A stretch of DNA of 61,976 nucleotides, filler included. It is 8 parts of 8 records of this genome, joined end to end, with 100 filler letters (N's around TTAATTAATTAA, not from the genome) between each part and the next. Parts side by side here need not be neighbours in the genome. Positions count along the whole stretch, not along the records: positions 1 to 10,673 come from SRR15195285_3080; 7 more parts are not named here. One strand, 5' to 3'. How positions within the stretch are numbered: position 1 is the stretch's first letter; each line of letters starts with the position of its first letter. Below the pieces are notes generated by a model. The model was given only the letters and a program-made list of their open reading frames with translations. It did not search any database and was not told where the DNA came from. The translations under genes and the position numbers were made by a program. Shown here in pieces: positions 472-25,118 of this stretch.

Positions 472-3400
472 TTAGTTGAATAGCTCGTCTGCGCTGTGCA
501 GCGCGGTGTCCGGAAAGTTGCCCGCATTGGGCACGACATCTGCCATGCGAGCGTCATCGACGCCGAACCACTGCGCCAAGCCATACCACATGCCTTCCCA
601 CGGCGTTGTTGGAATGAAGACACCTCTGCCTCGGCCGACCTCAAGTTCGGACGTGTCAGGGTTGATGTCGTCTGGATAGACACCATGGACACGCCGGCCT
701 CTGACTGAGCCTCCAATGATGAAATTGTTGCCCCCCCACGCGTGATCGGTACCAATTCCGTTGGAGGAGATGGTCCTGGCGAAATCAGAGATCGATACGA
801 TGGTCGTCGAATCCCAGAGGTTCAAAGCAACCAGATCAGTATGTAGGGCTTCGAGATCGGTGTTGAAATTGGCGAGGTGCAGGTTGATGTCAAAGTGTGG
901 TGCATTCTGGTGCGCGTCAAACGAGCCAATTCCTACCATAAATGCATCCCGCTCTGACTCGTGTACAGAGTGATCAAGAGCCATGACGCGCGCTATATGC
1001 TCGAAACCTGTGCCCCCTCCGTAGTTTCCTAACAAGTTGATAGCCGCTAGTTGAGCGCCAAGCCTCTCGGTGTTCTCGAGCGAATCCTCAAGGATCGAAG
1101 CGTAGGTGTCTGCGAAAACAGAGTCCGACTGGCGGCCGGTCATCTCGCGCAGCGGATTGCTGAGTGCGTCATATTCTGTGAAGCGTATCACACCTTCTTT
1201 TCCAATAACAGTTGGCGAGACGCTCCCCTCAACAAGTTTTTGAATGCCGTATATCGAGTAGACCTTCGATCTAAAGGGGTTGTCTTGTGATGTCAGAGCA
1301 TCCATCATCCGCCCCAACACGCCGGTGGCACCAGAATTCTGGGCATGCACAGACTGAGCCTGCCGAATTTGGGAGTCGTGCCCGAAAAGCCGCGGTGGAA
1401 ACTGCTTGCTCTTCGAAATAAACTCGTCTCTTGTCAGTGGTTCCACAAGAGCGCCAATATTTGCAAACCATGACTGCACGCACGCCAGCCGACCAGTATG
1501 TGAGTGAGGAGTCAGCATTCATGAGCGCAAGAAAGCAGATGTAGTGGCATGGTATCGGAAGAAACCTACAGCTTGATCAGCCTCCCAGAGTGTCTTCACC
1601 ATACCCAATGTTGGGTGCGTCCCGAAAGTTGTGCAAACCTCCAAGTTGTCACTCTCCTCGTGCAGCTCCATTGGTAAGATCTGCTCAAGCGGGAGCGCGA
1701 TGTTGCTGCGGATCTCGGTGTACTCAGCGTATAGATCTCTCACACAACCACTGTGTGGAATTAACATGTTGTAGGAATCTGCCCCCCCTGAAAGCAGAAC
1801 AACAATGAGCGCCTTGTACGGACGATTCTGCGTTGGGATTTCCGGTAGTGCAGGTCGTGGGTGTTCTCGAAGGACATTTTGGTTGGTGCTCGAGTACTCC
1901 GAAGAAAATGCGAAAAGCTTGATTAGTGTCGGGAGCAAGTCGGCCGCAGAGGGCACCGGCTCCGAAGGAAGGCCTGGGGTGTAGCGGCATCCAGCTGCAG
2001 TGCAAGCTGTGCTATCTTCCAAGCCCACAACCGTGGCGCATGTGGCAACGCCGGCAGGGTCGGCAGGAGCTGATGTCATGTCCGTAGCAAGCATAGTGGT
2101 GCCGTCTGCGGCGACAGCCGGGATCGGCGACATGTCTGCCATGCTAGCGATCCCAACAGCAAGATTGTCACCTCCACCTCCTTCGTTGGCGATGGCACGC
2201 AAGAAGTAGAGGCTGCCGGCACTGAGTGTTTGTGGGGCGGACTGCTGAGACCCATATTTGTTCCATTGGCGGCTGCCAGTCCATCCAGGAACTGAGGCGA
2301 TCTCGCCGGCAGCCATGGCTGTGTCGGGGTCAGTGCCGAACCATAAATGAACGTTGTCATCACCAGCGACTTGGAAGATGTAGTTGCCGTCTTCTGGAGC
2401 CCGAAAGTACGCGTCCATTTCAGTGCCACAGTTGTCACATACGTTGTTCGGCGCCTCGAAGAGTTCGTAGACCTCTTCCACATCAGGTGGGTTGTTGATG
2501 TAGTTGACATCGGCGAGCATTTGTTCAACTTGGCCGCCACCAATGCCGTTCCAGCGTCGATAGTTGATTCCGGCTGGTCCAAGCGTTGCAGGTGGAGTGT
2601 ATGCACAGGTGGGCTCGCCGACCACCCCATCTCTCACCGCAATAACCTGCAGCTCCATCAACACCAGGCACTGTCCTTCTTGCCGCACAGTGACGTACCG
2701 CCCAGTACCTGGGCATGACAACGTCGAAGCAGCGTCGCCAGTAAACACAAGTGGTGCAGCGCACTGAACGCCCGTGGTGAAGTCTGGTGTGTCACTAACC
2801 AATACCGTAGCGCCGTTGATGCGTTGTGGCTGAGAGGCCGTGCGATGAAACACCTTTACACTGTCAATCGCCATCGTTCCTTGCAGGTCGACTTGCACCC
2901 ACTGCTCCCCAGTGCACAACGAGTGGAAGGGGGCCCCAGTGGTCGTCGCACCATTAACGATATTCGCAGGCCCGTGCGCCCCGTCCCACCACTCTGATGA
3001 TGCTGTGGTCGGTTTGTTCAAGGCGAGGTTGACATACTGGACTTGGCTCGCGTCCCAGTACGCACGAATGGCTGGCGGTTCGCGTCCGTTCGTCAAGATG
3101 AGGGCAAGCTCCGATACTACGTCACCTGCACCAGATAGATTTTCATACTGGTACGTGAGCACGCCGTTGCTGGTCAGCTGCAGTGCTTCTTTGCCGGACC
3201 AGCACCCTTCTTGTCCCATGGCGAGGTGGGGTTGGTTGGAGGGAGCGGTGACACCGAAACCACCTGCACATGACGTAAGCCCATTCTCCACGAGCGATGC
3301 AATGCCGTTCATGTACCCGATGAGAAAGGGGGTTGTCATAATCTGAGCTTCCGGTGCATACAGTTGAGATTTAGCAGCGGGGCCGGCCGGAACATAATCT

Positions 3401-6400
3401 GGCAAATAGAAGTTGAACACAGACGGTGACTTAAATGCCTGCTGGCCAATTTGAAGGTCGAGGTGAGACATTTCGAACTCCATACCATTGTTGGGGACAA
3501 AAGTCAAAGAGCGAAACACGTTCAGAATCTTGAGAAGCGGCTCGCGCAGCTTGCCTGCGGCTGGATCTAGGTCGAGCGTTGAATCACGTGCCTCACGGTC
3601 AGAAAATATCGCGGCGGTTGCGGCTCCAAGATCACCATACTCCCCCGAAAATGCGCGCCCTCCGTATTCTCCAGTTCGGAAAGCTGTGACAACTTCCAAT
3701 ACATAGCGGGGTGATGGATTTGATGTCATCAGAAGCTGGATGAGCTTTTTGCATATGAAAGGGGCCGTCGACGGGTGCGTCGTAAGGTGGTTCAGCACTG
3801 CGTCAGTCTCGAGTTCGGCTTGGCGTAGCGTTGGGTGCTCGAAGTCGAGGAAGGTTGGTGGGTTGCGGAACGAAAAGTCATCGATGGTCACATGTAGGTG
3901 CTGGTTCTTGTAGAAGCTAGCCGTACCGTCGGAACGGGGCACCTCGAAAATTGTGTGCTCATCGTACATGAGCTCATCAATCCCAGAACTGAACTCGTAC
4001 AACTCGGGGGAATACACGAGGCCATCCGCAGTCTGAATCGCCTCCACGAGCACCTCCATCTCCATCACCTGCAGGCACTGCCCTTGCTGTCGCACTGTCA
4101 CATACCGTCCGTGCACCCCATCACACGAATTCACTGTGGGTGCCCACGCGTTGTGAGTCAGCGGGTCGCCACACTGGGTTCCGTTCGAGAAGTCGGGTGT
4201 GTTGCTGATCAGGATCTGGGCGCCGTTGATGCGTCCTCCACAGCAGTCTACTCGGTGATAAATCAACACAGAGTCGATGTAGGTCATTTGTTCGAGGTCA
4301 ACCTGCACCCACTGTTCTCCAGAGCAAGCTGAATGATACAAGCCTTCGTCTGTTCGACCATCGACAATCCACGCGTCCTGCGACTGGCCGAGGTTAGACG
4401 AAGTGGCTGTAGGTTTGTTGAGAGCGATGTTGATCTCTTCGATTTCAGCGTGCAGTTCTTCGTACATTCGCCAGCGTTTCGACCACACCGTGACGTCGGA
4501 CGATTCGCACAGTGCAGAGGTGCAGTGGATATACTCCCCATCATCATATGCTCTCGGGTCGATCGCACCGACCTTAAACTGAGCCAGTTCGCTAGCTGTC
4601 GGGATGCGTGAATTGTTTGCGAACACAGCTGACGTGGTAGCTGAAAGGTCGCACAGGCACGTGTCTTCGACCACGGTGCAAGAGGTGGAGCACCCAGTCT
4701 CAGCTTTCGGGTAGGCGTCACTCCACAGCACGTCAAACACACTCTTAGATCCAACTGAAATGACTTCGGCAACCGATTCTGGGTCAATCCTGCCGTCGAG
4801 AGCGGAGTTGTCAACCAGATCGCCAGCATGCACCACGTTGACGCGGCCATCGCGCTGGACCTGCACTTGCGTCGAGCAAGGTCTTCCCATCCACGTCGAG
4901 AATCGCCACTGGCTGAAGGGGTGGCAGGTGTTCCAGCCAGCAACGTTCGAGCTTCCTTGGCAGACATCTGGCCTCCAGATGCCTTGTACTTCACAGCGGT
5001 GGACAGCAGTAGCATAGGTGACTCGCTCTCGATGATACTCGCAGCGAGCGGTTCCAGTGCCATCTGTGGCGCCTCCTTCCTCACAACACAATGGCGCTGC
5101 GGCGGCACGCCTGGGGTCTGCGCAGGACATGGTGTTGATATACGGAGCTCCGTACCTGCTCAGGAAGTAAGAAACTCGATCAGCAGTCAAAACAGTACAG
5201 AAATTCAGTGGAAAATATGATCAACAGCGAAGAGAATCATTTCTCGGAAAAGGTACTTGACAAATTGTCCGTCATTGAAGAAGGGAAACTGGGTGCAGGC
5301 AAACTCGATACCTTCGAAAAAGCCCACCGCCCCATTGGCATCGACCACCTGTATGAGGGGTGCACGGTCCAAGCCACATTCGTACCCAGAGCACGGCAGC
5401 GACTCTGGCAGTGTGATTTCGCTTGGATACGTACAGACACCTGCGACTGGAGCACAAAGGGTCTGGTACAGCGCCGAGGACGAATCTGACAGTGTCAGGT
5501 AGGAGACTACCCCCGCGTCATCCTTCAAGCTATCCATCTGCTCTACGGTGTCTCCACGGTACGCATACGAGAATCCTTTCCGCAGAAATGCACGCTTGGG
5601 CATATCGACACACGGAGGGAAGCCGTCACCAATGAAACCATCGAACAGGTCCATTTTTGGCGAAGCATCTCGATCCTTAGCAATGATCTCCATCGTATCA
5701 ATAAGCGAATCGATTCTGTTTGTGCGCAGGTGGTAATAGGTGGATTGTCCTGTTGGAGCCACAAACCCTGTCCACGCCCGTGCGAACGATGCGACATCTT
5801 TGACCCCGTAGGTTGGAATGTGGTTCCCATTGGCGTCTAGTACATGCGTACCATCGCTGTTCAGGTGCTCCGTCCCGACTGTAAACAGCTGAATGCACTC
5901 GCGGGCGAAATTCTCATCTGCAAAGTCTCCAGATACTGCCGCCGATTTCGAGTCGATGAAAGTGAGCATGGAACCCATAGGCTGACTGAACGCCACTTCC
6001 TTGATCAGGCTGCCAAAGTTTCCGAACGCATATCTCACAAATATGTCGTAATATTTAGCATTCGCTTCCTCGTATGGGTGAAAGCCGCCCTCGCTCACAA
6101 CATAGATTTGGCTGAGTGCCCCTGTTCATGACAAAGAACGAATGCGAGTCAGTCAGGTGGTGACAAATGCAGTTCTTGAGAGACCCACGTAAGCGTTGTA
6201 CTCACAGGCCACCTTTTGACGCAACTGGTCCTCGGCATTGAAGACAGTGTTGAGCCACAGCATTTCCAACGTCCAGTACGAAGGCTTCTGTGGGCCATTG
6301 CCTCTGCCACCGTACTTGTGCCCGTAGTATGGGTCGTTCGCAACCTCTCCAATAGAACCGCAGGACTCTGATACCCCAGGGTCGACCGAAATATCTTGAA

Positions 6401-9400
6401 CCCCAGCAAGCTCGGCAAGCCAAGGCTTCTGCATGGTGGTTGGAAGCGAGCTGAAGTCGACTGTTTCTCCGAGCACACCTAGCCGGCGGGCGAGTGGGGT
6501 AGGATTGCGTGCACTAAACCTGGTAGGCCAGCAAGATCGATCCGGGCAGACAGCTGTAATCGGTAGTTCCGTCTGCCCAAGGGTCGCGAAGCGCGTCTGT
6601 GGGTAGATGCCATCCCCTGTATTGCCTGGTACCTGATAGAAGTAACCCGACGTAATCCAGTACGCCATGTCGTACACGTCATACTCCTCTGGATGTACGT
6701 GCTCCAAGCACGTGCCGTTTATGGTGATCTTTGCGCCCACAGTACTCACTCCATTCGCCTCTGTGACGCACTCACCTTGTACTGTCTCGATAATGACTAT
6801 ATTAGGAGTCTCTAGGCCGACGCCCGCTTGCATTGTAGCAGAGATCGAGGCCAGAGTGGCCGCGTCAAGCAGCGTATCGGAGTCGCAGGCGCCGTCAGTC
6901 TTTTTCCATCGCGAGGCAGCGGAGCATGGCGAGTGGCTCATATCCATTGGGCCCATGTCGGTCAGATAGTACACATACTTCTGACTTTTGCTGAACATTT
7001 GTCGCATCAGATCTTCATCCAGAGTCACCGTTCCTTCAGTCCATAGGGGTTGCGAGCACGAGCTCTGACGCACACAACCCTCGGCGTTGGTGAAAGCTGC
7101 CTTAGCCGCTGGACAGAACGTCGGGGTAAGCGATGGGATGAACTGCTTGTCCCGCTGGAAGGTTATGCGGCGTTCAAGGTACGGATTATCGACGGTGTTT
7201 TCGACCAGCTCCCTCCGAGGTTCGTGGCGAAAATACCTCTCGCCATGACGAATGAACACTGTCGGATTCGGCGGTAGCTCACAGCTTTCCAATATACTGC
7301 GCAGCGAATAGGAGTCCTTAAGCGGAGGTTGCATGGGAACCATATCAATCGCATCCAGCTGCTGCGTCAGGAACGGGTCAGGTACTCGCAAACTGACTGG
7401 GGGATTCCCAATAATGATCTGCTCACTACCCGACGCCTGGCACCCTAATACTCTCCAGTCGACGCCTGGATAAGGTACGCCTGGGTTAAGCAAAGACACA
7501 TCGCCTCCCTCGTACTCGTTCACGAAGCAGATCACATAGCTAGTGTTTGCCTGCAGTCGTGGGGCGGGGGCTGGCGGAGGCGCTGGCATGGAGGGATCTG
7601 GAATGCATCTGTGCGCGTTTGCGGCAGGGTCAGTGGTTACGCAGCCGTTTAAATCTCTCCCGTACCGACAGCAATAACCATTTGCACCGCAGAACTGCGG
7701 ACAGGGGCCATGAGCTCCGCACTGACCCCAGCAACCATCGCCCATGTTCTGCAGTCCTTCGACTGGTGTAGTACTCGGGTACGTGTATATACTGAGACTG
7801 CAGTCAGCAGGGCCCGTTCGCCATGGGCCTCCTGCGCCCAAAACATGGCGGTCTCCAGGAGCTTGCAGGTGGCACGCTCCATCGGCTTCCTTCCAACTGA
7901 AGTAACCGCAGCCACTGGTCGTAGCACAGCGCTGGTGGCACGCCTCGACGGACGCTTCCGTGGTGGCGCTGGTCCCTGGCATATCCAGCGGCACACGGAA
8001 ACCGCGTTTGTAACAGCTCCACTCAACGTCTTCCCTGATGTCTTTGGTACTCTCAACTACGGTTCTGACGACTCCCTCAATACTTAGTGAGTAAGAACCG
8101 TCTGAATTTTGGAAAACGTCAACTGCCCGTCCCGTGTCATACTTACTGAATGCGAAGGTCACCCACGACGATTTTTCCTGACACGGCGGACGCATCACTA
8201 AGTTCGGGGTTCGGGCTGAATCCTGTTGGTCATTTGTACGAAGACGAAGGTACGCCCTATGTAGGCTGGGCTCAGTCTCCATCTGTCCGCGCAGCCATTC
8301 TTGCATCGCTGCCTCTGTGTCTTCAACTGTTGCCGCGCTGAGGCTATCAATTTCGTTTAGTGTCGGGCCAAAGGTGGCCTGCGCCAAGAACCGAGATGCA
8401 AGTGCTTTCGTGTCTTGCGTAACTAGTGCCGACCCGTCATATGTTCGGAGCTGATATACAGCACCCTCGGGCAGCGTTGTTGAACATGCGACCGGCTGCA
8501 TCTCTGTGCATTGGAAAGCAACCGAGCTACCCATCGCTTCCCACTTGTTGCCGTTGTAGCTCCTGGCGATGGGGACAGCGCTTCCGCGGAGAGGAGCTTC
8601 GCCCTCAGGAACTTCAACAAGCGTCGCAAGCTCGAAGGGCCCAGCAACCGGCAGGGTGATCAAGCCAGGATCGACGTCTCTCTCGATCAGACCAGCTGGG
8701 CAAAGGTTGTCGCATCCCTCGCTTTGGGTGAGACCTTGTTGTGGGCAACTGCCGCCGAACTGTGCTGGTGACGTCACGGTGAACTGTCGAATCGTGCTTC
8801 CAGGTCCGCACACCTCGCTGCAAGGCCCGAAGTCACCCCACTCCCCTTCACAGTCTACAGGGCACTGGATCTCGGTATTGCAGGGCTGGGAATCCGTAGC
8901 ACCTGCTTGTTGGGGACATGCCACGCCACCGTTGCTGGCGATCCGTGCGATTGTGTACGTGCGTTGCTGCACGCCGTCGGTCCCACAAGTGTGGCTACAC
9001 TCGCCATACTCCGACCATGAGCCCACGCAGTCCACTCCCGGTGGTGGCGGAGGAGGACACAGTTCCGTATTACAGCCTTGACTTTGTGAAGTGTCATGGT
9101 CGGGGCACTCTGCTCCGCCATGTTGTGACTCTTGGAGGACTACGAAACTACGCGTCTGTGTGCCATTTCCGCAAGGGAGTGAGCAATCCCCCCACTCCCC
9201 CCAGTCGCCAACACAGTCCACAGGACATTGGACGTGTGTATTGCAGGGTAGCGCTTCAGGCAGCACCGCAGCATCGGCGCAGTTCTCTCCACCGTTCTGC
9301 TCAGCACGAGACACTACAAACGTCTGTGCCCTGACGCCATCCGGACCACACGCTTCGCTGCATTCGTCTAAGGCGACCCACAAACCCTCACAATCAACGA

Positions 9401-10160
9401 CTGCCGGAAGGATCGTCGGGGGCGCCATCGATGCGGTGTCTGCTGTGAACGTTAGACCTGCGACCGCGATCTCAATTTGCTGATCAGTTTCCTGCAGCAG
9501 CGCGAGGAGAGAGGCTCCAGCTGCTTGCACTGTCTCGGGAATGAGCAAGTGGAACAACACCTCGATGTACACGGGAGTCTCGGTCTCATTTTGCGCAGCT
9601 TGCAGGCGCCGGCGACCCACCTGCTCCCACTCGGCCTGAACCTCGCGAATCTCGTCAACGATCACAGCCTCTGGGCTGACGGTGGCGCCATTGCCAAGGC
9701 TGGCAGCCATGCTGTCTGCAAAGCCCTCTTCAAACGCGCGCCTCGATATCTGCGAGTCGGTGATGAGGCTGATGTCGCCACCGAAGGAGATGGAGGAAGT
9801 GACCGCCGCCAACGGAGCGAACGGGTCGGCGAAGTCTTCGGCCGCGCTCTGGAAGGCAAGTGCCGCTCCCGCGGGCGTCGACGTGTCCAACGTGCCGCAT
9901 ACGTCTCCGAACGAGGCCAGCAACGAGAGTAGGTCGTCCGTACCAACTCTGCCATCACCGCTGACGTCCGCGACCCGAGCCTGGGACGTGTCGGCTACAT
10001 TCCGCCCGAAGACTGCGAGCAGGTAGAGCAGGTCGTTGGTCCCTACGACGCCATCGTTGGTGAAGTCGAGCGCACACGCCATTTCTTGGCCTTGGCCGCT
10101 GGCACGCGGCGCGCCGACCAGAAGGAGCAGCAGCACCGACGGTTTGAGCGGCGCCATCAT
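472..10160 (-). CDS. Secreted multidomain DUF1800-DUF1501 fusion protein (~3135 aa, 4 exons): signal peptide, dockerin-like Ca-loop pair, SEA-like module, 4x TSP1, split DUF1800, PAN/Apple, 2x F5/8C (F-type lectin), PA14, DUF1501
   Basis: Exons 10160-6206, 6121-5257, 5155-1570 and 1473-472 are joined by GT-AG introns 6205-6122, 5256-5156 and 1569-1474. The spliced length is 9408 nt, in frame. Splicing restores LRQKVA-W-ALSQIYVVSE. DUF1800 motifs: ASRFLAQATFGP, DENFARECIQLFTVG, HPSTAPFICKKLIQ, GKLREP, SPSVFNFY. DUF1501 motifs: LSGGADSYNMLIP, FDAH, SDFARTISSNGIGTDHAWGG. Signal peptide MMAPLKPSVLLLLLVGA. Confidence 0.88.
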
Positions 10161-10673
10161 CTCAGCTGCACGCCCGACGTTCTTGCCCCAGTTCTGCCGA
10201 CGGGTTCTTGCCCCAGCTAGCGGCCTGACCCGCGACTCCTCCGCGAAACTGGTCGCGCAGGCGTTGAGGGCGCTGGAGGTGATCTCACTTCCCGTACTAT
10301 ACTTGTACAATTGTACGGGTACTTTATACGCGAGCGCGATGGAGTGGATCGCATCATCGCCAACATGCACAGACAGCATGCAGGTGGATGGATACATGTA
10401 GGCGCGAACTTCGCGAGCGCGCGCGTGCTCGCACTTTTCAAGCGTGAAACCGAGCCTGCATGCACGGCCGCGGCGGTATCACGCGTGGGTTTGAAGATTG
10501 AAGGTGGAAAGTGCGGTAATTCGATTCATCATCATATGATTCAAAGGGCAACGGCTTTCTCAAAACGGCTTTCTCACCCGTGTCGGGATCTCGGGAATCA
10601 TGTTGGGAATTGGGACTTTGTGGTTCCGTCGGGGCAAAATACATTGACACCGGGCATAAGGCGCCTTATGCCC

Positions 10674-10773
10674 NNNNNNNNNNNNNNNNNNNNNNNNNNN
10701 NNNNNNNNNNNNNNNNNTTAATTAATTAANNNNNNNNNNNNNNNNNNNNNNNNNNNNNNNNNNNNNNNNNNNN
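10674..10773. other. Artificial contig-joining spacer (N44-TTAATTAATTAA-N44)
   Basis: Fixed 100-nt spacer with stops in all six frames; the same structure occurs seven times in the window. Confidence 0.98.
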
Positions 10774-13700
10774 AACCCGAGGCCGGGTGGAAAACCCGAC
10801 CGCATCATCGTATATATCCAAGGTCAGCCTAAGAGGTTTAATAAGCTGCACCTTTAAGCTGGAACCTGACGCAGACTCTGGACCTCGCTGCTCCGGGTCC
10901 GGCTCCAGCTCGAGCTCAGGCTCAGGCGCCGGCTCAGGCTCCGACGCGTGAGCCGGGGCAGATGCAATCGCATCCGCCGTGCCCTTCATGAAGTCTCCCA
11001 AGTGTTTCAGTAGTCGCAAGTCACAGTAGCTTATTCTGATAACGAACATTCCAGGGTGGTGAAGACAGACGCTACGTTTTGAATCCTCATTGCGGATTGA
11101 GACGCCTAGACTCAGCGGCTCTGCAACAACCATATGGCGGTTGGTTTTGTGAGAACTACGCAGGTGGTGTGCCCCGCCAACATATGTCCAAAGCGTGAGG
11201 CCTTCTAGTTCGACATCTTGATGATCGGGCACAGTCTTAGCAATGATGGAAAGCTTCTCCATGCCAAGTCTTAGTCCGCTAACCGAGGACTCATTTGGAA
11301 TGAGCAGAGCGACCTTTTCGACGGCAACATCTATTTCCACAGGCAATGGTGGTGCTGCATCTTCCACAGTCACCGCGTTTGGATTGCTGCCTGTAGGCTT
11401 AGTGGCACTGGACGAGGACTGCTGTGCTTTGTCGTCTGGTTTCAATTTGCGGGCATCCATGAACGGATTGTGCAGCGCCCAATCTGCAATTTCTTTCAAA
11501 AAACTTGCTGACACCATTAGATCCAGTCCAATAAGCCGTGCTTTCACACTCATTGGTAGGTTCCTCGGATCTCTCGGAGATGGCTTGTTCAAATCAACGG
11601 TAATACATCCACCATCGTACATCCAAACCAAGATCGCCTTCTCCACATTCTCGTCAGCCAGTACTGCTGCCATGGTGTCTGGAAGCTCTCCGTGCATAAG
11701 CACCATAGAACCAACCGATGCTTTGACCTGCATGCCGCCTAATTCTTGAACCACCTTGGCAGACACATTGTTGATCCTAAAATCGGATACTATCGCTTGG
11801 TCCTCATTATCAGGTACGAGCCTTGCCCCAACTTCCCGAAGATCAAGCGAAATCGTTTGCTTGGTGCGATCTATGACCTTTGCCGGCACTGCTCCTCCTG
11901 CTCCTCCTGCTCCACCTGCTCCTCCTTGGTTCACATTACCCACTGCCGTGCTGGCCTGCCGAGCTTGCAGTGTTTCCAATGCTGATCTAGCCCTTTGCTC
12001 TGTCAATCTCAAAGCTCTAAGCTTTTCCTCGGCAGCCCTGTGCTCCTGTCTTAGTTTTTCAAGCTCTCCGACTGTAACTGAGTCGTCTTGTTCGGCACGA
12101 GTCTCAGCTTCCAGTGCTCGGTCGCAGACTTCAGTCGCTTCCACAACCTTTGCCTCTGCAGTGGTCAACGCAGCCTGCTCTGGATTGACCAATACATCCA
12201 AATAGTGAGTTGCAGCCTCACCAAAGTTGGACAGCTCTTGCAGCAGGCCCATCCGAATTCCTGTGTCAAGGCGCATAATCTCTGCCGCGATAATCGAAAT
12301 TGGCACATAGTCAACTGCATATGGAGATGTGGCCTGTGCGGTCCGCATGTTGACCTTGGTACCTTGGATAAGTAGAGTGTACGTATCGGCGCGTTCGTGT
12401 TCTACTTGTTGGCAATCCACGACATCGAAAGTCTCGAACCCAACCTCCACGTCTTGATCTAACGGACGTTTCGTGACTTTCGCATTCAGACCGAGCAGGT
12501 GAAGTTCCATGAGGTCATCTTGTCCATCATTGTCTGACAGCACTATATGCAAGTCTTCGACGTGAACGACGAGGTCCATCAACTTCCACTCTTTTAGCTC
12601 TCGCTGTGCAAGCTCTGATTTCGTTGGTTCGACGGTCTTGGCTGAAGCTTGGGGCACCTCGCGGAACCCACCCCGCAATGCGCTCTGTGCAGTCGCTTTT
12701 TTGGACGCTCTTCGCCACGCATCTGCTTGCTCAGCTCTGGTCTTCTTCGCCTCGGCCATCTTTGCCTTTGGGGTATCGCCCTCAAACGCAGCCTCGAAGC
12801 TCTCGCTACCCATGAGAATCTTATTCGCGACCTGTCTTGATGGCTTGTCTGCTTCTACTTGTTTCGGCACCGATGGTTTTGACGCATTTTGCACAGCACG
12901 TGATGGCTCAGGAATTTTGATCGAGGCCAGTACCTCGGCGAAGAGGCCTGCCAAGTCTTGAATTTCTCTGTCAGATATTCGAATTTCAGTAGAACTAAAT
13001 TGAAAGCTGCCGATCATCTTTGTCAGCGCTGGATCAAACTTTGTACATACGGACACATCTCCTTGCAGTCTCGCTGAGTCTATGATCACCATCTTTTGCC
13101 CGGTAAATTGCCCACTCAGCTTCCACCACTCCATAAACTCATTTTTCTCTATCGCACCCGAATTATCTGCGTCCAGGGCTGTCCATATCTTTAGAAAACC
13201 CTCATCAGTAGTTCGCTTCCCAAGCAAATGCAACACCGCTTTGAGCTCCGTTTTGTCCAGACTCGCGGAGCTATCCGTGTCCGCCTGTGACCACAGCCAC
13301 TCAACGTATAAGGAAGCCTTGAAATAATCCAGAAACTCTCCAAATTCAATTTCGCCGGACATATCCTCGTCCATACTTCGCATGTGCTTTTGGATTTCTT
13401 CCTCGGTGAGTCCGTCGTTTGATATAGCACTCAAAAGCTTGCGGATCTCGCCCATTGAGAGACTGCCACTGTTGTCTTTGGCGTACGTGCACCACAAGTG
13501 AAGAATCTGTTTGTGCTGAGCAAAGTATGTGTTGGTTGGGCAGTAGTAAACTTCCGCGCCGAGTGTGGAGACCTTTGATACGTCATAGTCACCCAAAGCG
13601 TCCTTACTTGTCGCCACAGTGATTCTACCAGTGTCGACCACAAGAACAATGGGATCTGCGTCATCGAGGGTGAACTTTTGTGGTAGGCAAAGCACTGGCC

Positions 13701-16136
13701 CACCAATGGCAAAGTGCGCAGACACTCGGTTCTCAGTCGCTTGCTCCATCTCTAGACCTTCTGCAGCGGCACTCATCTGCAGCATGTAATTATCGTAGAG
13801 CTCGTTGAACGCGTTCGCAGCTTTCAACTTCGTTTCCGTGAAGTCCGCGTCTTTGCCGTGAAAATCGGCGAAGTTCTGGAGCACTGGCAACATGTTGTAA
13901 TTTGCGACGATCTGTAGCGGTTGCATGTCCAGTTCCACTGAAACAGTCTGCTGAATCTTTTCAATTGGAGCTGCTGCCCCATCTTCAACCTTCTTCGTGA
14001 TTTTTTTCCCTATCTGGAATTTGAACACTGGCTGGTCGCTCGCCCCAGAATCATGGCGTTGGATGATATTCGGGAAGATAGGATTGTGCGTGAACTTATC
14101 GTGCACTGTTAGGCTGTGGATGCTGACAGCAGCTCCACCCCCACCGTTTCCGAACATATGAGCTTCGATGCTAAACTGGTCGACAATGAGGTGGATCAAC
14201 GAGGCTGACTGTTGGCTAAGCTCAAAAGCGATCCGCTCGTTCAGTAGCTTAACTTTCGCGAAGCTGACATCGGGTTTGAACTCAATTGCATCGCGTAGCC
14301 TGAAGGCCGCGCGTGGATCTACCATCTCGATTTGTGCAAGTGTCATCTTTCGAGGCTGCCCTTGTTTCTCTTGCTCCAGGTCGTACTTTAAGAGTCTGTG
14401 CCAAGCAACGCTACGCAACGCGACAATCATATCGAAAGTGTGAGCGTCTTCGAGTTCTGTCATGAATTCCTGCTCTGCTTCAGTGAGATCTTTCAGGTGC
14501 GGCCGCCCATTGCGACTGTGGCGCTCGTACAAGCTCACGTAGGCCTGCACCGTGCGCAAGGTATGTTGGACATTCCGAAGGTTCCTTCTTTCGTAATTGT
14601 TCCGCACTTGCGTCACGATGCAGCGTCCAGCAAACTTCCACCACTCGCGCGCATTGATTCCACCCGATGGCGGATAATCCGGGCGGCCACCGAACTCGCG
14701 CCAACGGTAAATATTTTGCATCCAGGAAACAAGATTAAACCCAATCGATGCGTGCTTTTGACGCAGGTGCGTCTCGATTCCTGTAAAGTGAACTTCAACC
14801 TCGTTGCTGGAGCCATGCTGCCCGTGCCATATCCGGCTTTGCTCAGGCGCATTATGTTTCTCCTTGTCTATCGACAACTGCACCTCCATTGACATGGGAC
14901 CAAAGGCATACATCATTCCCTGTGCTGCGCGACCATCCCGCGCGATTGCGTCCCACATCTGCGTTATCCAGGCGTCGCTCCCTGGATCATCATACGGCTG
15001 TTCGCCGGTGTTAATGTACAACGCAAGGCCCGACTGATTCAGTGGAGAGGTGTCATGCTCAGACCGTGGCGCCTGACCTTGTAGCGCTTGACCAATCGTA
15101 AACATCTTGTTGAGATACCGCTGCTCCTCTTCCACAAACTTCTTCTGCCACTCCCCAGTAGTCAGGTCAACGAAGAAGGACCTGAGTTCAATACTGTCAA
15201 TCGTAAGGCCAGCGGCAAACGCACTCGAGACCTCTGTCTCCCATGTGGTGCGCTGCGAAGAGACGCGGTCCTCATATCGTACATGGATATCCTGGATTGT
15301 GACCTGAATATTATCCATGATTTTTTGCAGGTATTTCGCTGCCATGCCCTTAGATTCTTCATCGTCATCATCTTCTTCATCCTTTGCCTGTGCCCATGCT
15401 TTGTCATGCCCTTCAAGCTTGCTGCGGAGCATGGTCTTCGGGTCGATATCAGGGCTCGGCGCCAAAGTTGCATAAACCTGACTGAGCTCCACCACGATCG
15501 GCTTTGTCTTGAGGTTTTGGAAAGGGATGTCGAGAGTCAAGCTGCCGACGTACGAGGCCACGAGCTCCAGCGGAAGGTTGAGCGTGTGAAAGAACTCCTT
15601 TCTCAGCCGCAGATTCGACAGCTCAACCCTGCCCTGGCTCATACTAAAATGGAAATCGTCCGCGTTGATTCCCTCGATGAAATCTCCGAGGGCCTTGTTC
15701 AGTACTTTTGCGATAGTACCTCGCATCCCTACACGCGGGCAGTGCGCGCGGCAGCGATGTCAGAGAATTGGATGGTCGAGAGCAGCATGACAACGCAGGC
15801 GAACTACGGTGCACTTTTCTGACCTGACGCCACCTTATCGGTCAGTCTGTCCTTAAACGAGAGCTTGACTTGTTTTTGCTGGCCCATGCGCTCGCGCGCT
15901 TTGTTGGCCGAACGCTGGGAGCTCTTCAGCAGTCCGCCAGGCGTCCTGAGTGGCGTCGTCGGCGGCGTACTCTCGCCCTTTGGCGACACCACTGGCGACT
16001 TTGTGTCGGGCATGTTTATGCCTTCAGCGCGCATCAGCTCCGCCTTGTCGGCCTTCTCCGCTGCCAGCTTTCTCTCCTTCTTCGTCATCTTCTTCTTGTC
16101 TTCCTTCTCTTCGCCTTTTTTCCCGCGCTTAAACAT
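10774..16136 (-). CDS. VPS13: VPS13-family bridge-like lipid transfer protein, N-terminal part (3' truncated by contig end), with an internal 4x EF-hand module
   Basis: Chorein_N signature IAKVLNKALGDFIEG...GRVELSNLRLR...VGSLTLDIPFQNLKTKPIVVEL...IMDNIQVTIQDIHVRYED, plus WWKFAGRCI. The Lys-rich ORF 16136-15804 joins in frame through a phase-1 GT-AG intron (donor 15823 or 15814, CTGAC branch, acceptor 15729). If that exon is not used, the start is 15726. Confidence 0.88.
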
Positions 16137-16370: not shown

Positions 16371-16470
16371 NNNNNNNNNNNNNNNNNNNNNNNNNNNNNN
16401 NNNNNNNNNNNNNNTTAATTAATTAANNNNNNNNNNNNNNNNNNNNNNNNNNNNNNNNNNNNNNNNNNNN
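16371..16470. other. Artificial contig-joining spacer
   Basis: N44-TTAATTAATTAA-N44. Confidence 0.98.
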
Positions 16471-17446
16471 TGGCCTCTAGATCCTCTCAACGAAGGTGGC
16501 AAATATTTGCTGCTGCGCCAAGTGATACCAACGTCTCCTCCTACCCTAGGTCCTGCATTTTGGGCAAAGGATCCTGGTGCAGGTTTTTCTGAAACAAACA
16601 AGCGGCTTGGGATTCGTACCCTGGCACAAATGCCGCAAGAGACGCGCACCGACATTTCGGCACTGCTGTTGGGTGCACGGCCATGCCCTAAGAATGCCAC
16701 CAAGTGCGAGTTCTGCGAAGATGGCTGCCAAGATCTTCGCGAAGCCGCACTGGGCAATGCGCCGTGCAAGCTGGCAGATCCAGGCGGTCCGTGGATCGAA
16801 CGAACACATTGGCGTGTGCCTGGAACGCAGGAGGACGTCCTCGTGTACCGGGCGGAGGGGCAAGTATTATGCTTCTCGCAGAGAAGCGGTGGAAACCGTG
16901 GCAACTGGAGCGCACCAAGCTCGACTAGGCTAACAGATATACACAGCAACATGAACGCCGGTACATTACCCGATGGGCGCATCTACCTTCTTCACAACCC
17001 AATTTTGGGAAAGACTGAGAGAGACCCGCTGGTTCTGTCGCTCAGCACAGACGGCTTCAACTTTGATCAAGCCTTTGTGGCCCTGAGCTGTCGGTTGCAA
17101 CCGGTTGCACCTATCAATACGTCGTGTCCGAACGCAGTCTCATGCCCCCATCTAGGATGCAAACGACGCAACCCTGGGGGCGGATCTCCAGGCCCTCAGT
17201 ACCTACTCCATCCAATCTTTGCATTCGCCATGCACTTATCTGACCAAAAACTCAAGTCTCAACGAAGTTTCTGCATGCAGAATACGTTGCGTTGTTGCCT
17301 GTGCAGCTGGCTGAACGGTTGCGCGGCGCAGGTACTCGCAAGGTCTAGTGCATGAAGATAATCTATATATCATCATGAGCATGAACAAAGAGGACATATG
17401 GGTCGAGCGGATACCGATCAGCGCGTTGAAGAAGAAGGCTGATTGA
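16471..17446 (+). CDS. BNR/Asp-box (sialidase-like beta-propeller) protein, 5' truncated
   Basis: The frame is open from the contig start (WPLDPLNEGG...). Motifs SNMNAGTLPDGRIYLLHNP and RDPLVLSLSTDGFNFD (Asp-box). Intron 17199-17331 gives PQYSQGLVHEDNLYIIMSMNKEDIWV...KAD*. Confidence 0.75.
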
Positions 17447-19727: not shown

Positions 19728-19827
19728 NNNNNNNNNNNNNNNNNNNNNNNNNNNNNNNNNNNNNNNNNNNNTTAATTAATTAANNNNNNNNNNNNNNNNN
19801 NNNNNNNNNNNNNNNNNNNNNNNNNNN
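19728..19827. other. Artificial contig-joining spacer
   Basis: N44-TTAATTAATTAA-N44. Confidence 0.98.
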
Positions 19828-22800
19828 GTGTCGTCTGGGGCAGCGAGAGCTCCACGAACTGGAACCCTCGGATCGAGATTTACAAGGATTCCAAGACAGC
19901 GCAGAAGGCTCTAAACTCGCCGATGAAAAGGCCTGACTCGCCAGTTGCAAAGAAGGGACCCGAGGTGCTGTACCTGCTAAGCAGCGCACAAGTGCACAAG
20001 GAGACTGAAGACAAGTACAAAACCGTCCTGCTTGCGTTCAGGCAAGCTGGGGAGGCAAGTCAGGGGGAGGGGGACGAGCCCATGCGGATTCGGCTGGATG
20101 ACAAGGAGAAACTCAGTGGGTCGGCTACACCTGCCAAACATTTCCAGGACGCGATCACGAACGCCATGACACCCCCGCCGGAGCCTGAGCCGGACACACT
20201 GACCGAGACAGATCCGTCGGAATTGTCACCGCGAAGCTCCTTGTCCACCTCAGACTTCGGCTCGTCGGAGTGGGAGATGGTGATTGAGAACGATGCGGCC
20301 TCAAGGATCCAGGCCGCCAGACGAGGGCAGCTGGCTCGCCGGAGGATGCGCCAGACGGAGCTAGGGCACCAACTCAAGGACGACACCACCTATGCGTTGG
20401 TGGCGCTTTTGCCCCGGGACAACACGGCAGATCGTGATTTATCGGAGCGGCTCGACGAGTCACGGGCATCGCTGCACAGTAGCTCGACAGCGAACGCTTC
20501 CGGCCCATTGCTCTTCAACGACGGGAAATCCGTGGACAAGCTTGAGCAAGAGCAGAAAGCCATGCGAGCGATCGACAAGGCGAAACAGGACGAGATAGAT
20601 CGCCTCCAGGGTGAGGTTACGGAATGGGATATGTCCATCGAGTTGAATAAGCAGCGGGCACAGGACGAGGAAATCAAACGACTCAGGGAGGAGGTGGCGC
20701 AACGAGAGCAAGACTTTGCGGCGCTGCTTGAAGAGCGGGAACGAGAAAACGAGAGGCGCATCGCTGCAGAGAAGACGGCAGAAGAGGAGCGCTTGCGGCG
20801 TCAGCAAGAGGCTGAAGCAGCCGCGAAGATCCGAGAAGCTGAGAATGAGGTTCAGGCCCTCGCGAAGGCTCGGCAGAGGGCCGAAGAGGCTGCGAAGGTT
20901 CGCCAGCTACAGGAAGCAGAGCTTGCTATCACGCAAGCGAAAGTAGCGGAAGAGGCGCGACTGTTGGCAGAACAAGAGGCACTAGAGCACGCGCGGCGAG
21001 TGGCTGAGGCGGAGGCTGCACGCATCAAAGCAGAAGCTGAGGCAGCGAAGGCACGGCATCAGCAGCTGAGGAATTCCGCTGCAGTTCAGATCCAGAAGGT
21101 CGAACGGGGCCGACAAGCGAGAGCAAGGCTGACTCAGGAGCAACAAAAGAAGATAGAGAGACGCAAACTGTGGCAGCTGCCTTTGCGGGAACGACGTAGG
21201 CAATGGGAGCTGCGGTTGGCCACCGAAAAGGAGGCAGCTCTCGCGCAGAAGCGGCGCCGTGAACAGCATAGAGCTGCGGCAAAGATTCAGGCAAGATGGC
21301 GCGGCATTGTGACACGACGGATCGTAACACCACTCATCCTACAGGTGCGGGAAGAAGAGCGAGTTCGCAAACGACGTGAAGAAGAGAGGCTGCTGCGAGA
21401 GCGGCAAGAGCGCGAGAACAATAAAGCCGCAGCACGAATCCAGGCGATACAGCGCGGCAAGAACGAAAGACGGCGGGTGGATGAGCTGCGAAAGCAGCGT
21501 GCAGCAGAGGAAGTCGCGAGACAAGAGCGCCTTCGGGTCGAGGCGGAGGAGCAAGCAGAGCAGGATGCTGCTGCGCGTCGCATTCAAGCGATCCAGCGTG
21601 GCAAGCAGACCAGAGCTGCGCAACAGGCAGCGAAGGAAGCCCGGCTCGAACGTCAGGCCCGCCGTGAACACGACTCAATCGCACGTGTTCAGGCGATGCA
21701 GCGTGGCAAGATCGGCCGACGTGAGGTAGTCAAGCAACGGGACAACAAGCAGAGACGAGACGAAGAGACAGCCGCAGTACGGATCCAAGCTATGCACCGC
21801 GGAAAAATAGGGCGGCGACTATCACCACGGCGTCGTCTCGAACCACGCATTGCTGCCCGCACCAAGCACATGGAGCAGATGTCGACAGACCTCCCGGGCC
21901 AGTGGGTCTTGATCGAAGGTGGCGAGGTCGGCCAAGTGCTGCACGTGCAGAAGCGTCCAGACTCGGCACCGCCTGAGGTGCGCATGAAAATGGAAAATGG
22001 CAAGGAAGTATGGCGTGGTTTGGCTCAGGTAGCAAAGCTTTATGGCGATAAGAAACCAGGTGCACGCAGTATGGCTGGGGCAATTCACCTCGCCGTAGAA
22101 ACGGAGAAGATTGCGCGTCGAATCTCTCCTCAACGAGCCCGGCCTGGTCCCGGAAGTGGCCAGGACGGGTCTGCAAAGGGCGGTGGAGGAAAAGGAGGCA
22201 CTGTGCCGGTCGGGTCGATTTTTCACTTGCTTCCGGAGGCAGATCAGAATATGCAGTCGCGGATCAACACTCGAGTGCAACACCTTGGTCCTGGACTAGA
22301 CCATGCAGACCGACATGATGGGGCACCGGATGGGTACGAGTGGGAGACTGAATCGGAGTTACCTGACACACCGGATTCGTACAGTCGTCACGCACATAGA
22401 AATTTGCAGCACCAGCACCATGATGACCGTAGTCGTGCGTCACCACCACGCGTTCATACTCATGGAGCGTACCACCTCTCGTCGAAAGCAAGAATGCAAC
22501 GTGAGCATGCTGCGGTACTGCACCAGATTCGACAAATCATGCAGTCACAGCGTAGGTTGAACGGCAAGTCTATTTCAGACAGCAGGGCGGTGTTCTTGGC
22601 TATGGATCGTGACAACTCTGGTACCTTAGACCCGGGTGAGTTTGCAGACGCAATGCGTCGGCTCGGTCTCGGCCTTTCACCACAGCAAGTCGGTAGCCTC
22701 GCGCGAGCCCTTGACAGTGATGGCGACGGTGCTATTGACTACGAAGAGCTGCTTGATTATCTCCACGGTAATGTTCCTGTTCCAGGACCAAATGACTTTG

Positions 22801-25118
22801 ATGAGGAGGGGTTTCTCCGAGAGGACGAGTCTGTTCGGAGCATTTCGCCTCCGCAGCGCTCGCGCAGCCCCCAGCTTCCTCGACGGAAAGAAGGAAGTGG
22901 CATGCCGCCTCGCAGTGGCAAGAGTGTTTCGTTTAGTGGCAGGCCACAGCAAAGAGGAAGCGGCAACACTAGTCCAAAGCGAGGAAGACCGCCGGGTATG
23001 GGGGGTGAAGGAGCACAGCGGAACACAAAAGATGGAGAGCCAGTGAAGGTCGTTCGTGAGAGTGGGGACAAACCGTGGGGTGACAACAAGGTCAGCAATC
23101 AGATTCCTGCGTGGATGCTTCAGAGAAAGAAACAAGTCGAAGAAGAGGCGGCAGCTGCAAAGTCAAAAGATAAAATGGAGAGAATCAGAGGAGAGGATGA
23201 TGAGCAGCAGCAATCGTCTGCTGATAGCCCGGTGCGTCTACACAGCCCCCCAATCCCAACCCACCTCCCGGGTGGGTCGCGATTTGGAGAGCAGTCACCT
23301 GATGCATCACTAGATGAGAGTGACGACGAGGCGCTACAGCTTGCAGACGGCTTGAATGCGAGGCAACAAAATAATGCAGATCGCCTGCAGCAGCAGCCGT
23401 CTCTGCAACAGCAGCGACGGGTCAAAGTTGCGGGACCGATTGGCCAGTCCATTGATGACCAGGCTGCTTTGCATAGCGAACAAGGCGACGAGGACAATAA
23501 CTTCGACAATGAATCGCTCGCAGGTTCGGAGTACAGCGCTCGCTCATCGGCGTACTCGATGTCGCACCCAGGCACGCCGCCATCGATGTCGCACCGCGCT
23601 GGGCTACATGCACTCGCACCTGAAGAGAGGGCACGGAAGCATGCACACGCAAGGCGAGTACTTAAAGGCGTCTGTCGTTTCGGAGACGGGATGCTCAGAC
23701 AGCGTGTGACGGAGCGACTTGGACCAGACGCTGCCGAGATGGAGCGAAAGGGTGCAGGGCCGCCGCCAGCTGCACCACCACAGGATGCAGACTGGAATGA
23801 GATTGGTCGAACGGAGTGCATCCACGATACCAGTGACCCACGCTTTGCAACATCTCTGGTAGTGTCGAGGCTTGGACCTCATGCGAAGAAGAATCGCACC
23901 GTGCGCTGGCTCCAGATCAAGGTGCTTGATGTGGACGGTGATGGTGTAGACCTGTCTAAAGACGACCTCTGCGGGGAAGCAGTCCTTGACGTCGACTCCT
24001 GGCTTGGCGAGCTCTCCCGAGATGCTGATGCACGTGCTGCTGACACTGCTGATTTTGCTGACCTTCAACTCGCGATTAAAGAGGCTCCTCTGCGACGCCC
24101 GCAGAAAGGCGCGAAGAAGCCGAACAATAAAACTTACGGCACTGTCCGGATCATTGCGGAGCCGCTGCGCAATAGTCCGGGCGCACACCAAGGCAGAGGT
24201 GCAGTGCGCGTGAGCATGCGAGGAATGAATCTGATAAATGTCGAAGGTTTCCTGAGCAAGTCTGATCCGTTTTGCACGTTGAGTCGTGCACTGCCAGCGG
24301 GAGAGGACGACCAGAGATGGGTACGTACACTTACCCTGCTAGCATGCAGTTTTGTCGTGCATGTGTGATGAGGTGTGGTGCTGCAGGCGACCTGCTTTAG
24401 GACTGAATGGGTGAAGAATTCGCTGGACCCGATGTGGCAACCTTTTGATGTTCCACTCTCCGTCTTGTGCGGCGGCGACCGGGACACCACTCGAGCTCTC
24501 CGATTGCAAGTTTTTGACTACGAGAAGTCTGGTGACCATCGATTGCTCGGCGAGGCAACAACGACTGTTGCACAGCTGCTGGCGTTGCGGAGTGAGGTGG
24601 ACCAGAGTGGCGGTTCTGCAGCGGAGGTGGTCTTGGCGTGGCCGAAGGAGGGTCCACTTGCAGAGAAAGTAGAGAAGGCCAAGAAGAAGGGCAAGGCTAC
24701 GGAGGAGGCTGGCTCGCTACTCTTCGATGTCTTCAGCCTGCTCCCTGGAACTGCAAACGATCCTGTAGCTGCGAGCGCCGCAGCTACTGACGAAGATCAG
24801 TTCATTGGTGAGCCGAGCGTTTCTTTCTCCATCACATTCGACACGTAGCGCACCTTGTGTGTGCGAGTCCGCTCCCCTAAACGCAATCATGTGTGTTCCT
24901 GTGCAGTGTCAATTGAGGCTGACAACTTGCCGAACATGGACATGATGAGCAAGTCTGACCCAATCGCTGTGCTCTCGGTCCAGGAAACAGTGCCGGCGCC
25001 GAAGGCTGCTGACGCAACTTTGCTCGGTAAAATGCGGCTGAAGACTGCGAGGCGAAATCTCTCGCTCGCGACTGTCATGGCAAACACGCCAGATTTTCGA
25101 GTTTCAAGCCGTGTGTGA
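19828..25118 (+). CDS. Large Ca2+/calmodulin-related protein: coiled coil with 7 IQ motifs, EF-hand pair, copine-like C2 domains; 5' truncated
   Basis: The frame is open from the contig start. IQ motifs include AASRIQAARRG and AAAKIQARWRG. EF loops DRDNSGTLDPGE and DSDGDGAIDYEE. C2 motifs SKSDPF, FRTEWVKNSLDPMW, LQVFDYE. GT-AG introns 24321-24386 and 24808-24906 preserve the frame. Confidence 0.82.

Follow-up and report, generated by a model that had tools for sequence, protein, structure and literature searches.

What does a eukaryotic gene make when it joins DUF1800 and DUF1501, two protein families that lie side by side in bacteria, and what could the product do? The question is raised by the minus strand at positions 10160..472 of the DNA analyzed here, which we call the window (61,976 nucleotides, being 8 parts of 8 records joined end to end with 100 filler letters between parts; positions 1 to 10,673 come from SRR15195285_3080). 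The region is one four-exon gene of the eukaryote-type DUF1800-DUF1501 fusion family, in a genome that resembles those of marine protists. The reading of its product that we favor, and consider reasonably likely, is a secreted two-domain metalloenzyme with a metal site capped by DUF1800, which lectin modules would steer to glycans.

Four stop-to-stop open reading frames (ORFs) cover the region on the minus strand, at 6153..10478, 5205..6125, 1519..5220, and 472..1518. They are joined as follows, with protein positions given in amino acids (aa).

6206..10160, minus strand: exon 1, aa 1-1318 plus 1 nucleotide, with the ATG at 10160..10158
6122..6205, minus strand: intron 1, 84 nucleotides, GTGAGT..AACAG, with an in-frame stop; bridged by the bacterial DUF1800 profile
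5257..6121, minus strand: exon 2, from the ORF and the spliced coding sequence
5156..5256, minus strand: intron 2, 101 nucleotides, GTACCT..AGCAG, frameshifting; bridged by relatives P0011 and P0010
1570..5155, minus strand: exon 3, from the ORF and the spliced coding sequence
1474..1569, minus strand: intron 3, 96 nucleotides, GTAGGT..TGCAG, with an in-frame stop; bridged by the bacterial DUF1501 profile
472..1473, minus strand: exon 4, ending in the stop codon (474..472)

Joining the exons by script gave a coding sequence from 10160 to 472 of 9408 nucleotides, or 3135 codons plus the stop, with no internal stop codons. An unspliced reading is impossible because introns 1 and 3 stop the first and third ORFs in frame and intron 2, with its 101 nucleotides, shifts the frame. 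Junction 1 (aa 1318/1319) lies within a gap-free alignment of aa 1297-1476 to a profile of 50 bacterial DUF1800 proteins. Junction 2 (aa 1606/1607) is spanned by the alignments of P0010 and P0011, the latter matching the window protein in a single high-scoring segment pair over aa 1397-3055 at 69.7% identity, and junction 3 (aa 2802/2803) falls inside aa 2715-3127, which is spanned by a profile of 49 bacterial DUF1501 proteins. The original prediction had spliced four minus-strand ORFs through three GT-AG introns into one protein; its size and coordinates were reproduced exactly, and homologs bridge every junction. The neighboring genes in the window are ordinary eukaryotic ones (VPS13-like, eIF3I, JmjC, cytosolic carboxypeptidase, and PRMT), and we therefore take the gene to be nuclear and eukaryotic. 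Bacterial contamination was considered and is ruled out by the spliceosomal-type introns together with these neighbors. We are highly confident that the gene model and the family membership are correct.

The core of the protein consists of DUF1800, broken into segments, followed by DUF1501.

8223..8426, minus strand: DUF1800 segment 1, aa 579-646, bacterial profile positions 48-108, E value 2.7e-11
6273..8222, minus strand: insert A in DUF1800, aa 647-1296
5649..6272, minus strand: DUF1800 segment 2, aa 1297-1476, spanning intron 1, E value 1.3e-55
3856..5648, minus strand: insert B in DUF1800, aa 1477-2040, spanning intron 2
3277..3855, minus strand: DUF1800 segment 3, aa 2041-2233, E value 7e-52
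1882..1938, minus strand: likely last DUF1800 helix (..FSSEY..), aa 2680-2698, about 20 aa before DUF1501, assigned by eye
499..1833, minus strand: DUF1501 domain, aa 2715-3127, spanning intron 3, bacterial profile E value 8e-92

A Pfam search, whose failure to find the two families would have counted against the original prediction, placed both above their cut-offs. For DUF1800 (PF08811) the bit scores are 69.3 and 77.9, with a cut-off of 26.1, and exon 4 alone gives 67.2 bits for DUF1501 (PF07394) against a cut-off of 27. The three DUF1800 segments are collinear on the bacterial profile; by Pfam alone, segment 1 is weak (E value 0.0039). The window protein retains 31 of the 32 residues that are invariant in 50 bacterial DUF1800 proteins, and the single change, His to Arg, is the majority state of the fused family as well. 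A PDENxARE-type motif lies in segment 2 at aa 1385-1401. By eye, the helix at aa 2680-2698 resembles the SPEF/Y motif at the C-terminus of DUF1800; the profile search was not significant there. A profile match for the C-terminal fifth of DUF1800 inside a lectin was rejected as spurious.

The DUF1501 domain has all of the features that are invariant in its family, namely GGxD, an Arg, LFxH, FDxH, S(D/E)FxR, and GTDH, with GGAD at aa 2730, FDAH at aa 2987, SDF at aa 3031, and TDH at aa 3044. The claim that plausible metal ligands are kept holds well, as these residues are near-invariant across 204 relatives and 49 bacterial proteins. Counting only those relatives that align at a given column, the Asp of GGxD is found in 160/160 and the His of LFxH in 191/192; the Asp and His of FDxH in 202/202 and 201/203; the Ser-Asp/Glu pair in 203/203; the Asp and His of TDH in 203/203 and 202/203; and the invariant Arg in 157/163. 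Every candidate ligand is conserved in 49 of the 49 bacterial proteins.

We used AlphaFold2 to model the DUF1501 domain of relative P0086, which is 42% identical to exon 4, from a 21-row alignment (predicted local distance difference test score, pLDDT, 88.1; predicted template modeling score, pTM, 0.89). The model has 140 PDB matches at E ≤ 0.001, and the matches listed all belong to the alkaline-phosphatase superfamily. Those at the top include carrageenan, choline, aryl, and steroid sulfatases, LtaS/LtaP, EptC/MCR-1, and YejM, along with phosphonate monoester hydrolase and phosphonoacetate hydrolase. Searching PDB sequences by profile yielded 12 weak matches, 12/12 in this superfamily, at a strand-SD(F/H)G motif (SDFGR aligned to SDHG). 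The modeled fold shows DUF1501 to be a distant member of the alkaline-phosphatase/sulfatase superfamily, the relationship named in the original prediction. Enzymes of the superfamily have in common with the DUF1501 model the core fold (Foldseek probability 1.00, E values from 1.5e-6), and with DUF1501 the strand-SD(H/F)G motif and the acidic end of the first strand. In this superfamily the nucleophile is usually a Ser, Thr, or formylglycine located where a helix starts. The invariant His of DUF1501 begins a helix in the P0086 model, and at the preceding position the 192 aligned relatives mostly have Ala (121), Ser (40), or Gly (27). The fused-clade DUF1501 differs from solved superfamily enzymes in having no conserved Ser/Thr at the expected nucleophile place and no formylglycine motif.

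How do the two families occur in bacteria? We found 597 bacterial loci encoding a relative and kept 80, with one genome per species. The co-directional ORF upstream of the DUF1501 gene is a full DUF1800 in 75 of 77 loci, which bears out the expected adjacency and gives the same order as in the fusion; the complete upstream ORFs match DUF1800 at E values of 1e-67 to 1e-96. Three loci have no such co-directional ORF, and one of these, L049, has DUF1800 downstream of DUF1501. Locus L010 has two tandem DUF1800 genes before DUF1501, and in L022 DUF1800 is split into two ORFs. A twin-arginine motif is present in 66 of 78 bacterial DUF1501 ORFs, and the misses are mostly wrong-frame picks in GC-rich loci. 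In Photobacterium kishitanii (L044), DUF1800 has no signal and DUF1501 starts with a twin-arginine translocation (Tat) signal (SRRHFL), which would fit export as a preformed pair in this one example.

Bacterial operons such as L044 and that of Flavivirga algicola (L041) have the two families, their order, and the candidate DUF1501 ligands as in the window protein, and the Tat signal implies an extracytoplasmic location. They differ in that the bacterial pair is made of separate chains of about 520-600 and 450-480 aa without inserts, whereas the window protein is one chain. Bacterial DUF1501 proteins are 28-40% identical to P0086, and in bacteria a Ser precedes the invariant His. The DUF1501 of the window has no N-terminal Tat signal and is internal, right after DUF1800, as expected for a eukaryotic fusion.

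In the bacterial neighborhoods we scanned 130 flanking ORFs out of 201, drawn from 27 of 40 chosen loci, and met scattered TonB receptors, single cases of a sulfatase and a sulfotransferase, and DUF885. In Bacteroidota, a small protein with an F5/8 type C (F5/8-C) domain adjoins the pair (L041:6272-7024, L065:6269-7018, and L036:2160-2891), and those of L041 and L065 also carry a type IX secretion system sorting tail. These neighbors parallel the lectin inserts of the protist fusions.

We then asked if the two families are predicted to bind each other, using the bacterial L044 pair. Co-folding of DUF1800 with mature DUF1501, run independently of our own alignments, scored 0.92 in each of three runs, compared to 0.00 for the best of 3 controls. 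The pass mark used for complexes is reached by 51 of 78 solved complexes and by 2 of 108 mismatched pairs. Contacts agreed by at least 96% between runs, with partner pLDDT of at least 88. Sequence and profile searches of the PDB found no solved relatives of DUF1800 or DUF1501, which makes it unlikely that the model passed by reproducing a known structure. On the DUF1501 side, the interface includes R82, L152, H155, D313, H315, D369, and H370. On the DUF1800 side, it includes residues 159-166, 169, and 173, from the invariant PDENxARE..Q block, and the C-terminal residues 508-516. Five of the seven candidate ligands (H155, D313, H315, D369, and H370) and one invariant Arg are therefore in the predicted interface. 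By hand count, and as a description without statistical weight, invariant residues are only mildly enriched there, with 7/32 compared to 71/516 for DUF1800 and 7/28 compared to 64/408 for DUF1501. The three insert sites of the protist proteins map to loops 64-73, 245-254, and 437-451 of L044 DUF1800, and none is in the interface list. From these models, DUF1800 and DUF1501 probably associate physically. The suggestion that the two act as one complex with a shared interface is supported for the bacterial pair, where conserved DUF1501 Asp/His residues lie within the modeled contact surface.

The fusion itself is widespread in protists. Of 70 longer proteins matching exon 4, 52 hold both PF08811 and PF07394. 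An exhaustive search of representatives returned 4191 clusters at 50% identity with E ≤ 0.001, 422 of them with E ≤ 1e-30, and the best 150 of the 4191 include chains of up to 3153 aa. Both domains were detected with our own bacterial profiles in 126 of 204 retrieved relatives, and the remainder are mostly fragments. DUF1800 precedes DUF1501 in 126 of 127 chains, including the window protein (the exception is P0147), and in 10 of 10 chains scanned with Pfam. Across the fused family DUF1800 is interrupted at profile positions of about 108/117 and about 300/310, and in relatives with both ends detected, the linker from DUF1800 to DUF1501 is about 10-25 aa long. Sources include Aureococcus anophagefferens (P0239), Epithemia clementina (P0242), and Pseudo-nitzschia (P0068/P0071), so the expectation of similar fusions in algae is met in number and extends to other protists. 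Both domains are found in one transcript in transcriptome-derived ORFs, namely four Trinity records (P0014, P0048, P0060, and P0065) and P0133, all labeled complete.

Full-length look-alikes include P0211 (EukProt handle COSAG06, 3129 aa), which has TSP1, PAN, F5/8-C, DUF1800, and DUF1501, and P0210 (2969 aa), P0212 (3317 aa), and P0209 (70% identity). P0210 and P0212 also have TSP1 and F5/8-C, and P0212 also has PAN. P0011 (EukProt handle COSAG02), P0211, P0210, P0212, and others have the same domain order and the same two DUF1800 inserts as the window protein. All of these fusion proteins from public sets are hypothetical proteins with no assigned function, and their accessory modules vary; modules in other fused members include fn2, DUF7402, C-type lectin, WSC, Kringle, and copper-binding domains. 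The original prediction had put the gene forward as a candidate undescribed system. Its function is indeed undescribed, but the fusion is not unique to this locus, as P0211, P0210, and P0212 have near-identical architectures.

In a tree of DUF1501, one branch with a Shimodaira-Hasegawa-like approximate likelihood ratio test (SH-aLRT) value of 100 parts 64 fused-type rows from 49 bacterial rows; this was a quick, unrooted search under LG+G4, for which we took alternate rows of the 114 full-length fused ones and added a few by choice. A phylogeny against bacterial pairs had been suggested as a check, and this one fits a fusion that arose once within the sequences sampled.

The two inserts that are common to the fused family also have conserved parts of their own, at aa ~970-1296 (6273..7253) in insert A and aa 1477-1832 (4480..5648) in insert B. 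Dozens of relatives match aa ~970-1283 and 1477-1832 at 25-33% identity, with E values down to 1e-49. At E ≤ 1, Pfam finds nothing in aa 920-1318 and only an F5/8-C edge in aa 1608-1907. The ESM Atlas gave no usable match for the conserved part of insert A and, for insert B of relative P0019, only a eukaryotic DUF1800 cluster of its own kind (score 0.86). The two conserved inserts are probably unnamed domains. As for DUF1800 itself, a model of the bacterial protein (L044, 50-row alignment) is mostly helical, with a pLDDT of 89.3 and a pTM of 0.92, and had 0 PDB matches at E ≤ 0.001; the best E value was 0.22 and the template modeling score (TM-score) was never above 0.15. NCBIfam has no models for DUF1800 or DUF1501.

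The remaining modules bear on where the protein acts.

10095..10160, minus strand: putative signal peptide, aa 1-22, MMAPLKPSVLLLLLVGAPRASG, judged by eye
9921..10067, minus strand: weak dockerin-like / EF-hand pair, aa about 32-80 (within a dockerin-like stretch at about 29-88), with all matches under curated cut-offs
8661..9389, minus strand: four thrombospondin type 1 (TSP1) repeats, aa about 258-500, TSP1_spondin 109 bits in 4 stretches
4081..4407, minus strand: F5/8-C domain 1, F-type-lectin-like, aa 1857-1965, within insert B
2683..3009, minus strand: F5/8-C domain 2, aa 2323-2431
2155..2439, minus strand: PA14/GLEYA domain, aa 2513-2607

Judging from its first residues, the protein would be secreted via a eukaryotic signal peptide. 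No membrane span was found in the whole chain, where the Kyte-Doolittle value is <1.6 in every 19-residue window. The dockerin-like stretch matches Pfam Dockerin_1 (E value 0.0027), NCBIfam dockerin_GC (5e-4), and the PDB dockerin 2y3n (0.007). The TSP1 region also matches thrombospondin and properdin in the PDB, and a weak PAN-like stretch lies at about aa 731-767, inside insert A. Pfam scores for the PA14/GLEYA domain are 32.7-34.3 bits for GLEYA (cut-off 26.2) and 28.7-30.4 bits for PA14 (cut-off 24). The F5/8-C matches in the PDB are fucolectin FBP32 (E value 7.8e-13), eel agglutinin 1k12 (2.3e-9), and the pneumococcal fucolectin-related protein. F-type lectins bind fucose through the motif H-x26-R-x-D-x4-R/K, and F5/8-C domain 1 has this motif in full at aa 1881-1915 (H-x26-R-x-D-x4-R). 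The second F5/8-C and the PA14/GLEYA domain form a third insert, which is limited to close relatives of the window protein. Glycan-binding modules had been predicted for this protein, and Pfam and PDB matches confirm them; the picture of lectins decorating the enzyme is right as to their presence and needs correcting as to their place, since most are inserted within DUF1800 loops and not appended.

Taken as a mechanism, the favored reading runs as follows. DUF1501 would supply a putative metal center of the alkaline-phosphatase type, formed by its conserved Asp/His residues. DUF1800 would dock on DUF1501 and cap this site with PDENxARE..Q, its most conserved motif, and would probably shape the substrate pocket. 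The protist fusion would make the association permanent by joining the parts head to tail, with a short linker replacing the Tat signal of bacterial DUF1501 and a eukaryotic signal peptide exporting the whole chain. The TSP1, PAN-like, F-type-lectin-like, and PA14/GLEYA modules would bring the enzyme to fucose- or galactose-containing glycans or surfaces. As the modules sit ahead of the core or in three DUF1800 loops away from the interface, they could steer the enzyme without disturbing it. The activity that appears most likely depends on metal and would hydrolyze or transfer a phospho- or sulfo-ester group carried by extracellular glycans of the fucose or galactose type, or located beside them; we put forward ester chemistry at glycans tentatively. 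The lectin modules in protists and the F5/8-C neighbors in Bacteroidota narrow the substrate search to glycans.

Several observations weigh against this reading. The complex was predicted for the bacterial L044 pair and not for the window protein, and its score is the model's own confidence. D61 and the acidic residue of SDF are outside the interface list, and clustering of the ligands was judged only from their joint presence in that list. The last ~85 positions of the bacterial DUF1800 profile (about 487-573) were undetected in the window protein. In Foldseek, the P0086 matches have TM-scores of 0.26-0.39 and identities of 7-11%, at a probability of 1.00. Just ahead of the invariant His, the window protein has Gly, compared to Ser in 48 of 49 bacterial proteins. 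S1 sulfatases carry the formylglycine motif C/S-x-P-x-R. No conserved C/S-x-P-x-R was found in the domain, where a lone SNPLR (aa 2907) lies outside the conserved blocks and is absent in P0011 and P0008; because the formylglycine motif is lacking, we do not class the protein as a sulfatase. F5/8-C domain 2 has Ala in place of Asp in its fucose motif (aa 2351-2385, R-T-A compared to R-V-D), and its sugar specificity may have been lost or changed; relative P0011 retains the Asp at this position (R-M-D). Finally, no constant third partner or pathway was seen in the bacterial neighborhoods scanned.

A bolder form of the proposal is that the pair represents a new two-part class of metalloenzyme, in which a subunit of the alkaline-phosphatase fold works only with a partner of new fold that closes the metal site. 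The partner would also supply part of the substrate pocket, and the Ser-less protist clade would use the invariant His or a metal-bound water. We consider this somewhat unlikely. No solved enzyme of the alkaline-phosphatase superfamily is known to depend on a separate helical protein that covers the active site. If true, the catalytic arrangement would be one not known in the superfamily, and the lectin-bearing protist fusions would be major, so far overlooked extracellular enzymes for remodeling or harvesting substituted marine glycans.

Among the rival explanations, the one that survives best is that the core is a nutrient-scavenging phosphatase or phosphodiesterase for dissolved organic phosphorus, with the modules serving only to tether it to the cell coat. 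The alkaline-phosphatase-superfamily fold, the predicted extracellular location, and the wide distribution of the family among marine protists are all consistent with this, as are ENPP4/5 among the profile matches and a weak Phosphodiest match in P0068. However, the best structural matches are sulfatases and phosphoethanolamine/glycerol-phosphate transferases rather than phosphatases, and no link to a phosphate regulon was found in the bacterial neighborhoods scanned. Lectins also recur in the relatives (F5/8-C, DUF7402, fn2, C-type lectin, and WSC) and beside the bacterial pairs, which points to a glycan substrate. We regard scavenging as unlikely.

Quite unlikely is a non-catalytic fused-clade DUF1501, in which case the protein would be a large extracellular adhesion or matrix protein with a core that only binds a ligand. 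The Ser that adjoins the invariant His in bacteria is Gly here, 148 of the 192 relatives aligned have Ala or Gly in its place, and the chain is rich in adhesion-type modules (TSP1, PAN-like, lectin, and PA14/GLEYA), both of which would fit such a role. Nevertheless, the other candidate ligands (D, H, D-x-H, S-D/E, R, and T-D-H) are kept in about 99-100% of the relatives that align at those columns, and DUF1800 retains all but one of its 32 invariant residues. Purifying selection of this kind, seen across more than 150 clusters defined at 50% identity, suits an active site better than a scaffold.

A redox or electron-transfer module made up of DUF1501 and its partner is very improbable. Such a module was proposed for clusters of DUF1501 with PSCyt/PSD1 proteins; the excerpted text of PMC3542564 suggests membrane-targeted electron transport and describes Tat signals as well as carbohydrate-binding domains on the partners. 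Pfam detects neither a cytochrome nor any other cofactor family in DUF1800, the fold of DUF1501 is that of hydrolases and transferases, and the window gene is without a CxxCH-type partner. The least probable rival, that the four ORFs belong to at least two distinct genes, a mis-joined model, or a pseudogene, is opposed by collinear gap-free alignments to independent homologs at all three junctions, a coding sequence open across 9408 nucleotides, transcriptome-derived ORFs of other protists that hold both domains in one chain, and the 3129-aa look-alike P0211 with the same modules.

With the lectin-steered metalloenzyme still the favored reading, the nearest described systems can be compared to it. 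The modules of Planctomycetes and Verrucomicrobia in the excerpt of PMC3542564 likewise combine a Tat-signal DUF1501 with a large partner that sometimes carries F5/8-C or laminin-G; there, the partner is a cytochrome-motif protein (PSCyt1/PSCyt2/PSD1), whereas that of the window is DUF1800. According to PMC5122149, DUF1800 and DUF1501 form an operon, which occurs with a chitin synthase gene in some bacteria, and DUF1501 has a Tat motif. For Emiliania huxleyi, an excerpt of PMC7563939 reports 10 DUF1800 genes, of which 2 were upregulated in a calcium experiment. Both families are merely listed in the excerpt of PMC6653060, and DUF1800 is listed with no function in those of PMC12981691 and PMC3597751. 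Searched by family name and accession, the open-licence PMC and bioRxiv literature has just two papers that name both families, and we found in it no description of a function for DUF1800/DUF1501 or of the eukaryotic fusion.

The fusion, the strict bacterial gene order, and the predicted interface together turn two families of unknown function into one testable hypothesis, that of a heterodimeric or fused extracytoplasmic metalloenzyme. The window gene is an ordinary member of its family, and the value of the finding is therefore in what it says about the family, more than about this one locus.

The window also contains other large ORFs. Directly upstream of the fusion gene, the minus strand at 10726..15759 has a 1677-aa ORF with a VPS13-like N-terminal region and several EF-hands. 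On the minus strand at 45002..61975, a 5657-aa ORF runs off the end of the window and belongs to a giant gene; over the 4997 aa that were scanned, Pfam matches nothing but a single ELAPOR1-like TNFR repeat. The plus strand has a 1530-aa ORF with EF-hands at 19776..24368, in a stretch of strongly skewed composition (AT skew 0.365 and GC skew 0.141 at 20001-22000), and a 310-aa ORF at 16423..17355 with a BNR repeat-like (sialidase-type) domain.

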